A stretch of 64,000 bases of DNA, taken from positions 672,001 to 736,000 of the forward strand of contig CBDAOY010000005.1 of assembly GCA_965198225.1 (NCBI GenBank). The letters run 5' to 3'. The translations under genes were made by a program, and so were the position numbers. This document shows positions 438 to 4,726 of the stretch, piece after piece (position 1 is the first letter of the stretch; every line of letters begins with the position of its first letter). The DNA is from Terriglobia bacterium (GTDB taxonomy: Bacteria > Acidobacteriota > Terriglobia > 20CM-2-55-15). A model generated the notes under the pieces. The model saw nothing but the letters and a program-made list of their open reading frames with translations, ran no database searches and had not been told where the DNA came from.

Positions 438-1040
438 CGATCTCTCCGTTACAGGCCACTAGTTCGCCGAACGGCTCGAGACTGCCACTTCGACTGCGCG
501 GCGGTGCCGCTCCCGATTGCCCGCGAAAGATTTGCGTTTGGGAGCTTGAGCCGACAGACGGGCGGCTCTCGCCGGGTCCTTGGGAAAGGGGGGATCCCCG
601 ACCGTGAAAACGAGGTCCGAGGGCCGCTAGTCCTGCTGGCTCAATAGTTTTTAGTTGCGGCAGCCAGCTGATTGGTATATGAAAGATCGACGCCTTTCTG
701 ACAATTGGCAAGGGCCCGCGGATTTTTCGTCCTCGCTGCCGACGAGGACGACGAACGGGGAGATTTGAGGTCATACAGGCCATTCAGCCTGTAAGCCCCA
801 GACCGTGGCCCGCCACAACCCAAAGTGTTGTCCCGGTAGGAATCCTGCAGTACACTTGGTCAGGCGTGTCTTAACCTATTGAAGACAAGAGGGTTCGTTT
901 CGCTTTTTGCGAAACGGTCCCGACGTTGAGCCTTTGTCCTTCGGACAGTGGGTTGCTGGAGGGCGATCTCAGAGGTGGTCGTTTCTGAAAGCTTCAACGG
1001 AGAGCGTCTTTAGAATTCTTTACGGAATGGGGAGATCAAG

Positions 1041-2084
1041 ATGTCGAGAGAGCGGCGGCGGTATTTTGGCAGGGGACTGGACGTGGGGACCTCTTTTGTT
1101 CGCTGTGCTGAGATGCAGGGCCAGGAGATCGTGTCGCGTTCCGAACGAAGCGCGTTCATCGACCTGAACCAGGCGGCGGACTTCACCGAAGGCATGCTCG
1201 GGATGGCGCAGCTCGATTACGCGAAGAACGGCGACCAGCTCCGAATCGTCGGGACCAAAGCCATCGAGTTCGCAAACATTTCCCAGACGGATGCCCGAAG
1301 ACCCCTTCGGACCGGTTTGATCAGCCCGTCGGAAGATGAAGCCCTTCCGATGATGGAACTCATCGTCAGAAACGTTGCCGGTGAGGCAAGGCAGGGCGGG
1401 GAACCGTTGTACTTCTCGGTTCCGGGCGAGCCTCTGGACGCTGAGGTGAACCTGGCCTACCACGAGAAAACCATCAGCGGGATCTTGAGGAAGCTGGGCT
1501 ACAACGCCAAGCCGATCAATGAAGGGCTTGCCGTTGTCTTTTCCGAGCTCGCCGAGCAGCAATTCACCGGGATAGGGATGTCGTTCGGCGGCGGTATGGT
1601 CAACGTGGGCTTCGCTTACCGGTCACTGCCGCTGCTGACTTTCAGCCTGGCCCGAGGAGGGGACTGGATAGACGAGAAGGCCGCCCTCGCTCTCAGCGAG
1701 AGCTCCAGCCAGGTTTGTCTCTTGAAGGAGTCTTCGCTCGACCTGAGCAAGGGAGAAGACGGCTCCAATGCGCACAACGCTCTGTCGATCGCCTACGATG
1801 AGCTCATCGGCTACGCCGCGGATGCGATGAAGGACGAAGTTTCGAAAATGGTGGCCGTCTCGTCGATGAAGGATCCCTTGCCGATCGTACTGTCGGGAGG
1901 AACGGCAGCTCCCCGGGGTTTTGCCGAGCGGTTCACCGCGGCGCTGAAGCAGAGGGACTTTCCGCTCGAGATCGCCAGGGTTCAGGTAGCCAGAGACCCG
2001 TTCGGGGCCGTGGCCAAGGGCGCCCTGACCGCCGCGAGGGTTGAGGGGGGGCGGCTCGAGGAAAGCGAGGCAGGAACTGCCTAG
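1041..2084 (+). CDS. Actin-fold ATPase, volactin-like
   Basis: Phosphate-1 GLDVGT, connect PINEGLAV, phosphate-2 SFGGGMVNV, ARGGDWID, adenosine LSGGT, AVAKGAL. Confidence 0.8.
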   Translation: MSRERRRYFGRGLDVGTSFVRCAEMQGQEIVSRSERSAFIDLNQAADFTEGMLGMAQLDYAKNGDQLRIVGTKAIEFANISQTDARRPLRTGLISPSEDEALPMMELIVRNVAGEARQGGEPLYFSVPGEPLDAEVNLAYHEKTISGILRKLGYNAKPINEGLAVVFSELAEQQFTGIGMSFGGGMVNVGFAYRSLPLLTFSLARGGDWIDEKAALALSESSSQVCLLKESSLDLSKGEDGSNAHNALSIAYDELIGYAADAMKDEVSKMVAVSSMKDPLPIVLSGGTAAPRGFAERFTAALKQRDFPLEIARVQVARDPFGAVAKGALTAARVEGGRLEESEAGTA

Positions 2085-2145
2085 ACGCTTGATCCTCAAG
2101 CTGAATTGATTGCCTGTCCCAAGACTCCTGACAGTCTTGAACAGG

Positions 2146-2553
2146 CTATGCGCCCGGCCACTCTTTCCGGGAAGCGCCCGGGCTTTCGAAGAGTTCCTCC
2201 GACTTGCCGTCGCCGGCCATATTGCTGTTTCCGTCGAGAACTCCACCCTCTTCGATCACGAGCACGGGGGTGCGAACCTCTCCCTGAACTCGTCCGGTGG
2301 TGTGAATCTCGACGCGCTTCTTGCTGTCGATGTTGCCTGAGATCTTTCCGTAAACCTCGGTTTCACCAACCTTGATGTCGGCGTGGACCTGGGCCCGTTC
2401 TCCGATGATCAGCTTGTCGCTCGTCGTAATCGACCCATGGAACTCCCCGTCGATACGCAATGTGCCCGAAAACTGGAGTTCTCCGGTGACCGAAGTGCCT
2501 TGGTCGAGGAACCCGCTTATTTCTTCCGATGAGAATTTGGAACGCAGCTTCAT
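2146..2553 (-). CDS. Bactofilin (polymer-forming cytoskeletal protein)
   Basis: GTSVTGELQFSGTLRIDGEFHGSI ... LVIEEGGVLDG beta-helix signature; alternative start 2574. Confidence 0.9.
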   Translation of the reverse strand: MKLRSKFSSEEISGFLDQGTSVTGELQFSGTLRIDGEFHGSITTSDKLIIGERAQVHADIKVGETEVYGKISGNIDSKKRVEIHTTGRVQGEVRTPVLVIEEGGVLDGNSNMAGDGKSEELFESPGASRKEWPGA

Positions 2554-2634
2554 CTCGTCGCCTCTTTTGTCCATTCCAGTTGCGAACGGGCTTAAATCTT
2601 CCCGGTTTTACCTAGGTTCCGTCAAGCCGCTTTT

Positions 2635-3435
2635 TCATTTAATTCTCCTAATTCTCGTTAGTTTCGTCCACCACGGCTGGTTTTGGTAATCCGCGTAGTC
2701 CAGGCACGCGACGATACTCGATGCGATCGCTTCCGGTTCCGCCGGTTTGAGGACATAGTCAAAGGCTCCCGCCCTCAGCGCCTGTTTGGCAACCTCCCGG
2801 TCGGCGACCTGAGTGTGCATGATGACGTCGGGATGCGACTTTCTCTTCATGATCAGTTGAAGCGCTTCCATGCCGCCCATGTCCGGCATCGACATTTCCA
2901 ACAGGACCACGCGTATCGGCGGCGGGTCCTGTAGGAGCTGCAGCGCATCCCTGGCCGAACTGGTCCCTGAAGCCAGGTATCCTCTTCGATTCAGGAAGTC
3001 AATCACGCTTCGGCGACCCTCGTCGTCGTCGACGACGACGAGAACCCGGGCACCGCTGTCGCTGCCTTGAACCGCGAGTTCAGGGTTGAGCATCCCCCGT
3101 ATCGTCGCAACCAGTTCATCGAAGCCCGCGGCCTTGTCCGCCACGCATTCGATGCCCGCTTCGCCGGCCGCCGCGCGAGACTCGTCGGAGTCCACGAGCC
3201 CGACAAACTTCGGCGGCTTCAGGCCGCCTCGAGCCAGTTCCAGAAACTCCGGCAAGCCGTCAATTGTCGGGTCGACGATCGCCAGGTCCGGGCGGTGCTC
3301 CTCGAACGCTCGCGCAGCCTCGCGAATCGACGTGCCGCCGAATGCGTCCAGCCGATCGCCCTGCAAAGCCTGAATCACGAGATCGACCAGTATCTTCTGG
3401 CTGTCGATGACGAGGACGACGGATCGTGTTCCCAT
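2635..3435 (-). CDS. Response regulator with two receiver domains
   Basis: VLVIDS..PDLAIVD and VLVVVDDD...GAFDYVLKP receiver motifs. Confidence 0.8.
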   Translation of the reverse strand: MGTRSVVLVIDSQKILVDLVIQALQGDRLDAFGGTSIREAARAFEEHRPDLAIVDPTIDGLPEFLELARGGLKPPKFVGLVDSDESRAAAGEAGIECVADKAAGFDELVATIRGMLNPELAVQGSDSGARVLVVVDDDEGRRSVIDFLNRRGYLASGTSSARDALQLLQDPPPIRVVLLEMSMPDMGGMEALQLIMKRKSHPDVIMHTQVADREVAKQALRAGAFDYVLKPAEPEAIASSIVACLDYADYQNQPWWTKLTRIRRIK

Positions 3436-3496
3436 GAAGCTTAACGTCGGGGTGGTGCCGATGTGACGCCGAGAGTTCTCCGATGTGCCCAGACGC

Positions 3497-4726
3497 TCAG
3501 TTGCCGTAGCTGATGCGCAGAATCCGGTTCCCGCCGTCATCGGAGAGCAGCAAGGATCCGTCCATATACTGCAGAACGTCGACCGGTCGTCCCCAGACCT
3601 CCTTCTCGTCGTCGGTATCGCGGACGATGAACCCAGTCAGGAAGTCCTCCGGTTCGCCCGAGGGTCTGCCGTCTTCGAAGGGCACTCGCACGACCTTATA
3701 GCCGGAAAGCTCTGATCGGTTGATCGATCCGTGCAGCGCGATGAAGGCGCTGTTCCGGTATTCCGCGGGGAACTGGTCACCCGTGTAGAAGATGATTCCA
3801 AGCGCGGCCGAATGCGAGGGGAGAAGGATGTCAGGGACGAGAGTCTTCTCGATCAGGTCCGGGCGTGCGCCGTTCAGGATCGGTTCGGGGTTGGGTCCGA
3901 TGTAGGCATAGGGCCAGCCGTAGAAACCACCGTCCACGACGGAGGTGGCGAACTCCGGCACCAGGTCGTCGCCGAGGTGATCTCGTTCGTTGACAGCCGT
4001 CCACAGGGTATCGCTGCCGGGGTAGAATGCCATGCCGACCGGGTTGCGCAATCCTCCGGCGAAAACACGGTGGTCGGACCCATCCGGATTGTACTCGTTG
4101 ATAGCGGCGCGTCGGGGGTCGTCATCCGGCGTCGCGTTCGTCGACGAGCCGACCGTGACATACATCTTTCTGCCGTCCGGGCTGAAGATCACGTTCCGCG
4201 TCCAGTGGTTGTACCCCTGCGTGCGGCTTATGTCGATGCCCAGTCGCTCGGCCGTGTCGCGATCGACTGCCGCGCTGCTCGGCGGTAGATCGACGACATG
4301 TTCCGGGGGTCCCTCCGCCTTCATCTGACCCGGGGTGTACGGGAAGCGTACGACCGCAGCATTGTTCCCGATGTAGAGGAAGCCTTCCTGGAACGCGATG
4401 CCGAAGGGTCGTACGCGATCCGTCTCAAAGGTCGCAAACGTCTCCTTTCGCTCCGCGGCGCCGTCCCGGTCCGCGTCGCGAAGAACCACGATCTCTCCGA
4501 ACCCGCTTTCGGTCACGAACACGTCGCCGTTCGGTGCCAGCGCGATCCGACGGGAATGCCGGAGACCCTCGGCGAAAACGTTGACCTTGAATCCGGGTGG
4601 CACCTGCAAGTGTGTTCCATCGGGCTGGGGAACGATCCGCGTGATCTTCCGGTACCAGGGGGTATGGAAGGGTTCGGGCAGCTGCTGTGCTCCGACGAGC
4701 AACAGGACAAGGGCAAGTCTGATCAT
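3497..4726 (-). CDS. Secreted PQQ-dependent sugar / L-sorbosone dehydrogenase family
   Basis: Signal peptide; GLRNPVG, VNERDHLGDDLVP, GGFYGWPY, GRPVDV motifs. Confidence 0.85.
   Translation of the reverse strand: MIRLALVLLLVGAQQLPEPFHTPWYRKITRIVPQPDGTHLQVPPGFKVNVFAEGLRHSRRIALAPNGDVFVTESGFGEIVVLRDADRDGAAERKETFATFETDRVRPFGIAFQEGFLYIGNNAAVVRFPYTPGQMKAEGPPEHVVDLPPSSAAVDRDTAERLGIDISRTQGYNHWTRNVIFSPDGRKMYVTVGSSTNATPDDDPRRAAINEYNPDGSDHRVFAGGLRNPVGMAFYPGSDTLWTAVNERDHLGDDLVPEFATSVVDGGFYGWPYAYIGPNPEPILNGARPDLIEKTLVPDILLPSHSAALGIIFYTGDQFPAEYRNSAFIALHGSINRSELSGYKVVRVPFEDGRPSGEPEDFLTGFIVRDTDDEKEVWGRPVDVLQYMDGSLLLSDDGGNRILRISYGN

Follow-up and report, generated by a model that had tools for sequence, protein, structure and literature searches.

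A bacterial member of the volactin family and the tail-bearing bactofilin paralogue encoded convergently beside it in a Terriglobia genome

Which kind of actin is encoded near the start of a 64,000-nucleotide stretch of a Terriglobia genome, and does it belong together with the bactofilin gene that faces it? The stretch analysed here (hereafter the window) corresponds to positions 672,001 to 736,000 of contig CBDAOY010000005.1 of assembly GCA_965198225.1, a source genome of 6.4 Mb in 9 contigs that is 97% complete. It is noted below as G000:C5:672001-736000, where G000 stands for the window genome, other G numbers for sampled genomes and L numbers for fetched loci. An original prediction, drawn from the DNA sequence alone, had described an actin-fold protein resembling haloarchaeal volactin next to a bactofilin, both possibly forming a cell-shape module under two-component control. 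Our results showed that the actin-family gene (1041..2084, forward strand; 347 residues plus stop) almost certainly codes for a volactin-family actin of bacterial type. Its convergent neighbour (2146..2553, reverse strand; 135 residues plus stop) is, as far as sequence comparison tells, a dedicated bactofilin paralogue recognisable by its C-terminal tail.

Family membership of the actin was clear-cut. The product of 1041..2084 matched the Pfam family PF25216 (Volactin) over nearly the whole profile (positions 3-321 of 321; E 7.7e-88, 295.5 bits for a cutoff of 35), and no other actin-type Pfam family, MreB (PF06723) included, matched it at E <= 1. NCBIfam held no family for this actin, the models for MamK and syringactin reaching only 15.2 bits (cutoff 400) and 11.1 bits (cutoff 300), respectively. 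Membership in the MreB, FtsA, ParM or MamK groups was ruled out by these model scores, as the original prediction had expected from the motifs for MreB, FtsA and MamK, and the genome's own MreB stood as a remote outgroup in the tree described below. A sugar-kinase reading was discarded as well, no such family being matched and the top structural matches all being filament-forming actins. The proposed likeness to volactin proved right at the level of the family, and the motifs quoted at the time were indeed present, with one slip in spacing (three residues, not two, separate RRP from G).

The host is not devoid of other members of the superfamily. Besides a separate canonical MreB (482.5 bits), profile searches of the window genome uncovered two genes of the Hsp70 type and one that resembles FtsA. 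Neither of the two volactin copies of this genome (the second is described below) was matched when the genome was searched with the MreB model PF06723, and the BLASTP similarity between volactin and the MreB of the same genome was not significant (E 0.54). Neither mreCD nor rodZ was seen beside the volactin gene among the ORFs (open reading frames) scanned, no search being aimed at either. The start of the gene was placed at 1041 because of a ribosome-binding site at 1029-1035 and of an N-terminus conserved in relatives. This site is a Shine-Dalgarno-like GGGGAGA (1029..1035, forward strand) located 5 nt before the ATG, and its GGGAGA core was kept upstream of the volactin start in the window, L001, L003, L004, L153 and L154.

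At the structural level, a model computed with AlphaFold2 from 20 aligned sequences (predicted local distance difference test, pLDDT, 84.3; predicted template modelling score, pTM, 0.85) retrieved only actin-fold filament proteins at the top of a structure search (Foldseek, VIA-align). The best match was the MamK filament subunit (Z 27.4, root-mean-square deviation 2.9 A over 295 residues, 20% identity), followed by BeeR (Z 26.4), MreB (about Z 24.7) and F-actin (about Z 24.5). When the sequence profile was compared with the Protein Data Bank (PDB), only 5jyg, 5ljv and 5ljw were found (E about 1e-7, 34 bits). All are entered as 'Actin-like ATPase', and we take 5jyg to be MamK, like 5ljv, which would make MamK both the best structural match and the only solved relative by sequence profile. 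No volactin structure was present in the PDB copy searched. Yet MamK differs from the window protein by the model score given above, and no magnetosome genes surround the window volactin.

Five nucleotide-binding motifs are classically named in the actin fold, and in volactin residues D14, G16, T17, E161, S181, G183-G185, G286 and G287 were invariant or at least 90% conserved in alignments of 20 and 45 sequences. The adenosine and phosphate-2 motifs of volactin lined up locally with those of the genome's MreB, Ser181 standing opposite an MreB Asp. MreB therefore shares the fold and these aligned pieces, but differs in that PF06723 does not match the window volactin. The motif S-F-G-G-G-M-V-N at the phosphate-2 position is conserved throughout the family and was used as search pattern, which led to 469 loci. 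According to the model, volactin has the actin (ASKHA) fold with conserved nucleotide-binding positions.

So far, volactin has been studied only in one haloarchaeon, yet the family is broad in bacteria. A search of the protein database returned 1329 relatives at E <= 1e-5; all of the best 120 carry PF25216 and most are unnamed. Among contigs representing one genome per species, 469 of 546 pattern matches encode a volactin relative. Identity to the window volactin, calculated by group on the best 80 of these 469 loci, amounted to 73% and 63% in Terriglobia and 61% in Binatia, to 44-53% in many bacterial phyla, and to 39-42% in Archaeoglobaceae and Halobacteria. In the window's class, 42 of the 300 sampled genomes were over the PF25216 cutoff. 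Matches at E <= 0.001 occurred in 34 of the 49 genomes of family f5 and in 8 of 33 genomes of the window's own family f1 (6 of these 8 over the cutoff), and the gene was recorded in a single one of 251 sampled Binatia genomes. A scan of metagenome contigs with the window protein, for which the patterns were specific to the window sequence, gave 32 loci, all at or below 44% identity and none belonging to the near clade.

A quick IQ-TREE analysis of 113 volactin rows, rooted on the MreB of the window genome, separated an archaeal clade (29 rows, support 100), an acidobacterial clade (30 rows, support 100), a mixed metagenomic clade (12 rows, support 99) and a bacterial clade (42 rows, support 88). 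Partial matches, eight rows with an in-frame stop, seven identical rows and two loci duplicating the L003 and L004 genomes were left out. Within the bacterial clade, the window volactin, its paralogue on contig C6, L003, L004 and L005 formed a five-row group with support 100, and the MreB branch measured 8.5 changes per column. The in-frame stops were encountered in tblastn-aligned volactins of L043, L045-L049, L070 and L138; in the archaeal ones the alignment probably runs past the true start, because this start is overlapped over about 23 nt by the gene upstream.

VolA (HVO_2015) of Haloferax volcanii was itself not included in the tree, haloarchaeal loci standing in for it. The window protein shares with VolA the full-length Pfam family (39-42% identity to the haloarchaeal and Archaeoglobi members), the S-F-G-G-G-M-V-N motif and the Ser at the position where the MreB of the window genome has Asp. 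Judged by clade and neighbourhood, it is nevertheless not an orthologue of VolA, because it belongs to a separate bacterial clade and adjoins a bactofilin gene instead of DUF7139, the neighbour in the archaeal clade; its host, moreover, possesses a canonical MreB. In the literature searched, no bacterial volactin, no volactin-bactofilin pair and no actin in gas-vesicle (gvp) clusters were found, and the supplements of the volactin paper may add to the known distribution. As the family already exists in Pfam, what is new, within this literature, is a bacterial volactin with a dedicated bactofilin partner.

The bactofilin gene matched PF04519 (98.9 bits for a cutoff of 27.9, profile positions 2-97 of 98). 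An alternative ATG at 2574 extends the ORF to 142 residues (2146..2574); the start at 2553 is more likely because its Met heads the N-terminus conserved in relatives and a GAGG is found 9 nt upstream. The convergent arrangement and the 61-bp distance noted originally were confirmed: the spacer between both stop codons covers 2085..2145 and can form a stem-loop at about 2112-2146. The fold of 2070-2160 reached -28.1 kcal/mol (z -2.49), and 3 of 200 shuffles were as stable.

Conservation of this adjacency was surveyed with a local bactofilin profile and tblastn over 143 loci, the window included. An adjoining bactofilin gene was present only in the window, L003 (= L115), L004 (= L116) and L005, with Pfam confirmation for L003 and L005; a further match located 5.5 kb off in L034 was unrelated. 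The remaining volactin matches of the window's taxonomic family (G064, G128, G164 and G056) were then fetched. Taken together, the 3' end of volactin faces a convergent bactofilin gene at a distance of about 0-110 nt in all eight near-clade genomes, i.e. the window, G048/L003, G122/L004, the Binatia genome G300/L005 and the four just named. This corresponds to eight of nine loci, the exception being the C6 paralogue. The flanks past the pair vary: a response regulator gene and GSDH in the window, an Ig/fn3 protein in L005 and, in L003 from the same genus, an FmdA_AmdA gene at the place of the response regulator. The linkage is accordingly firmer than sequence alone had suggested, as it was kept in eight of eight genomes while the flanks change and involves a dedicated paralogue. 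The sole Binatia genome with volactin carries the pair with the same bactofilin type, which fits a transfer of the pair as a unit; its bactofilin needs at least one frameshift to be read through, possibly reflecting decay or an assembly error. An IS30-type transposase gene (HTH_38 and rve; L004:3544-4710) was observed about 1.3 kb upstream of volactin in the Terriglobia metagenome-assembled genome (MAG) containing L004.

The bactofilins of the pair further distinguished themselves by both extremities. They display a common N-terminus M-K-(K)-L-x-S-K-F-S-S-E-E and, after the core, an acidic linker of variable length followed by a K/R-E-W-P/R tail. In the window protein, this tail motif (K-E-W-P) occupies residues 130-133, encoded at 2155..2166 on the reverse strand. 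W132 was found in 22 of 22 sequences, and E131 and P133 in at least 90% of them. In the database, E-W-P near the C-terminus occurred in 17 of the best 120 bactofilin clusters. Bactofilins of this general type are widespread in the window's family (32 of 34 genomes), where the tails of 44 loci were read, namely the best locus of 30 genomes and 14 further copies; this survey did not extend to G140 and G200, nor to the second bactofilin copies of G000, G048 and G056 (loci already covered). Among these 44 tails, K/R-E-W-P/R was restricted to volactin loci (3 of the 30 best loci), and the tail-bearing copies of four other volactin genomes, read separately, likewise lay at volactin loci. No volactin was present in the flanks (about 1.5 kb) of bactofilins that end otherwise, for example in G-V-D-E-A-N. 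A related tail, K-E-H/R-P-G-A, characterises the upstream divergent copy, found in G056 beside the N-terminal half of volactin. The second bactofilin of the window genome (contig C9) has a different C-terminus, without the tail. From these comparisons, the bactofilin at volactin loci is a dedicated paralogue with a clade-specific tail.

Such tails matter in the light of studied bactofilins. The C-terminal tails of most bactofilins are described as poorly conserved, BacP as recruiting its client PadC through a conserved C-terminal tail motif, and BacA as binding the membrane via its N-terminal peptide M-F-S-K-Q-A-K-S (PMC12448750). The N-terminus of the window bactofilin, M-K-L-R-S-K-F-S-S, is conserved, basic and hydrophobic, and only loosely resembles that of BacA. 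The pairs BacP-PadC of M. xanthus and BacA-PbpC of C. crescentus likewise involve a bactofilin domain, with a conserved short C-terminal tail motif in the case of BacP (PMC12448750). They differ from the window pair in that the client proposed here would be an actin-family filament protein. A complex prediction combining volactin (45 rows) and bactofilin (22 rows), run without controls, gave a score of 0.00 in both runs, which speaks neither for nor against the pairing.

We consider it a serious possibility, though one falling a little short of an even chance, that volactin works with its tail-to-tail bactofilin as a dynamic actin filament anchored by the latter. Volactin would most likely bind nucleotide and form filaments. 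The beta-helical core of bactofilin would polymerise on the membrane without nucleotide, its basic and hydrophobic N-terminus holding the membrane, and the K-E-W-P tail, carried by a flexible acidic linker, would recruit, anchor or seed volactin filaments. Driven by nucleotide turnover, these would then lengthen and shorten in the manner of VolA in living cells. Dynamic VolA filaments whose tips touch the membrane are reported, together with a role of VolA in shape transition (PMC10869688). The pair would constitute a membrane-anchored two-filament system for spatial organisation, additional to canonical MreB. Its biological role might be in cell shape or in cargo positioning. A positioning scaffold seems preferable to an MreB-like guide of wall synthesis because the other contexts of the family are an organelle operon, a wall amidase and a membrane protein.

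These other contexts differ from clade to clade. In a sister bacterial clade, volactin genes lie inside gas-vesicle operons. For 29 of the 37 loci, gvp genes are found within 2.5 kb; of the other 8, 3 have flanks below 600 bp. An identical operon order was shared by a Saganbacteria MAG and a Nitrospiraceae MAG (L015:1585-9337 and L033:1181-10212; further loci in L006-L054). It comprises genes for a CDC48-like AAA protein, GvpL/F-DnaJ, GvpL/F, an unknown protein of 150-173 residues and volactin, followed by GvpL/F, GvpG, GvpO, GvpL/F and Gas_vesicle (GvpA-type), all co-directional. MAGs with such operon volactins came from at least nine bacterial groups, and the association of these actins with an organelle recalls that of MamK with magnetosomes. 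This clade nests with the window volactin in the tree but differs from it by its surroundings, gvp genes being absent from the window genome. There, PF06386 had 0 matches, and tblastn with GvpF, G, A, K and O taken from the fetched loci did not reveal any gvp gene, the output being limited to three short, partial alignments with a single query cluster; as a positive control, the same queries matched 14-33 of the fetched loci.

The acidobacterial clade (L117-L143, e.g. L118:257-1429 and L127:2496-3656) is the one present in 34 of the 49 genomes of family f5. In 25 of its loci, volactin was located just downstream of an Amidase_2 (peptidoglycan amidase) gene of about 390 codons, whose product shows a conserved N-terminal D-P-V-E-R-L-R-F-L-R and, in 19 of 25 cases, a single predicted transmembrane segment. 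The actin of this clade may be linked to cell-wall hydrolysis. In archaea, volactin genes (L043-L088) follow a DUF7139 gene with four transmembrane segments, such segments being found in 27 of 27. A small convergent downstream gene was also noticed in 13 haloarchaeal MAG or unnamed metagenome loci; its product begins with M-D-C-P-R-C-G, is zinc-ribbon-like and had no Pfam match.

More tentatively, the pair could represent the first actin-bactofilin composite cytoskeleton, in which the K-E-W-P tail anchors or nucleates volactin, and one case of a rule by which each volactin clade would have its own anchor or cargo. Under this rule, the partners would be bactofilin here, DUF7139 in archaea, membrane-bound Amidase_2 in other Acidobacteriota and gas-vesicle operons in at least nine groups. 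Few partners of bacterial actins or clients of bactofilins are known, such proteins being difficult to identify, and a compact pair with a short candidate docking motif offers a testable system of two genes and one tail residue. The wider pattern pointed to is that of clade-specific volactin partners, including an actin gene amid gas-vesicle operons that is unreported in the literature searched.

The window genome further provided an internal comparison, as the PF25216 profile found two genes in it, the one of the window and another on contig C6, each at about 295 bits. The C6 copy (in L001; 99.7% identical) displays 24 nucleotide differences distributed over 23 codons, of which 21 are synonymous sense codons, one leads to T91S and one is the stop codon (TGA versus TAG). 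Nearly all changes being synonymous, both copies are kept by purifying selection, and for the same reason the ORF is a real gene and not a chance ORF. According to blastn of L001 against L002, the duplicated segment corresponds to window 810-2082 and L001 1254-2512 (1274 columns, 94.3% identity) and ends at the stop codon. It therefore includes 810..1040 (forward strand), a likely promoter and 5' untranslated region that is 77.6% identical to L001. The neighbours of the C6 copy are a DUF6036/AbiEii-like nucleotidyltransferase gene on one side and several Ser/Thr kinase genes on the other. A bactofilin remnant upstream of the window volactin was searched for in 1-1100 and not found (best tblastn match E 0.58). 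Divergence between the copies is uneven: the last 110 nt hold 11 of the 24 differences in the coding part, and the upstream 230 bp are 77.6% identical versus 97.7% for the coding part. Such a pattern would be compatible with a gene conversion tract covering the middle of the gene.

Regarding expression, at least 20 sequencing runs from six studies hold part of 800-2700, four of them being metatranscriptomes of one study. Contigs of these RNA libraries were found on 1030-1333, 1441-1600, 1757-2065, 2048-2317, 2083-2490 and 2175-2579, i.e. on parts of both genes, and none on 800-1029 or 2580-2700. The contig on 2048-2317 runs with 0 differences from the 3' part of volactin through the spacer into the 3' part of bactofilin. 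Transcription of the locus, possibly with transcripts extending across the spacer, is thereby weakly hinted at. Two terminator-like sites were detected, none of them in the 61-bp spacer, for an average of 3.7 in shuffles; a sigma-70-type consensus scan upstream gave 0 sites, and an Rfam search of 300-2700 at E <= 1 found no RNA family. In relatives, the DNA upstream of volactin showed nothing conserved beyond the ribosome-binding site, except for a 62-nt stretch common to the genus. This stretch (window 623-684) is 81% identical to DNA upstream of volactin in L003 (5669-5730) and L154, and lies outside the duplicated segment.

Several observations weigh against a joint action of volactin and bactofilin. 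The volactin genes are broken in four of the eight genomes (G064, G128, G164 and G056). In G064, whose convergent arrangement is otherwise intact, the gene appears to lack about 57 N-terminal residues and with them the phosphate-1 loop, in G128 it appears interrupted by about 1.3 kb, and in G164 it seems to change frame. These three belong to genus g5, where the adjoining bactofilin frames have remained open, which indicates that the tail-bearing bactofilin may not need volactin; part of the damage may, on the other hand, be long-read assembly error. The C6 copy has no bactofilin nearby and the duplication stopped exactly at the stop codon, so that an actin gene can exist without an adjoining bactofilin, this lone copy being under selection too. 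Conversely, the bactofilin of the upstream type in G080 (K-E-R-P-G-A) lacks a volactin neighbour. Independence of the eight genomes is not given, as seven share one taxonomic family; the other near-clade loci do not have the response regulator of the window next to the pair; and convergent genes are not co-transcribed. Finally, the RNA-library contigs may include DNA carry-over. A separate peculiarity was seen in G056 (same genus as the window; L154/L155 on C1), where volactin is split into two halves about 129 kb apart, the N-terminal one 81% and the C-terminal one 62% identical. The C-terminal half faces a frameshifted bactofilin; upstream of the N-terminal half lies another bactofilin gene in divergent orientation, an arrangement also seen in L003.

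The family bias, the lone C6 paralogue, the open bactofilin frames beside broken volactins and the convergent orientation would all suit two functionally independent genes, whose adjacency would be an ancestral gene order retained in a few relatives and once carried by horizontal transfer. We regard this as unlikely, since the remaining neighbours change even between members of the genus, the bactofilin of the pair is always the tail-bearing paralogue, unseen elsewhere among the 44 tails read, and the pair recurs in a Binatia genome, from a class otherwise without the gene. Somewhat less unlikely, though still doubtful, is that the pair, instead of determining cell shape, serves as an accessory positioning or segregation device comparable to ParM or MamK, in which a cytomotive volactin would move or tether DNA, an element or an inclusion, with bactofilin as fixed anchor. 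Next to the pair, however, neither a gene for a cargo or an adaptor nor any centromere-like repeat was noticed, gvp genes are absent from the window genome, and the loci lie on chromosomes, in genomes of 4-6 Mb. What speaks for such a device is the patchy distribution (6 of 33 other family genomes over the cutoff, 1 of 251 Binatia), the frequent decay (4 of 8 genomes), the recent duplication and the IS30-type transposase near L004. The organelle association of the sister clade (29 of 37 loci in gas-vesicle operons) and MamK as best structural match point in the same direction. Salactin, another haloarchaeal actin, is also reported to aid DNA partitioning (PMC10869688).

By far the least probable reading is that the window volactin would be a functionless, decaying relic of a gas-vesicle-associated actin. 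Its clade does nest with gas-vesicle-linked relatives in a genome without gvp genes, and copies are broken in half of the related genomes. Yet both copies of the window genome are intact and differ almost only by synonymous changes, the conserved motifs and the ribosome-binding site are kept, and RNA-library contigs cover the gene. An anchoring of volactin filaments by the adjoining bactofilin thus remains the reading we prefer, at the strength given above.

Upstream of the bactofilin gene and on the same strand lies a gene (2635..3540, reverse strand; 301 residues) for a dual-receiver response regulator, matched by Response_reg in two stretches (92.4 bits). The two-component control of the pair that had been proposed from this neighbourhood was not borne out, the regulator being absent beside the pair in L003 and other near-clade loci; tblastn over the loci matched it only in L012, L052 and L023, all far from the near clade. 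The second receiver displays Glu at the position of the phospho-acceptor Asp (V-V-L-L-E-M-S-M-P), with the acidic pocket, Thr and Lys kept. Judging from these residues, it may be phosphorylation-independent.

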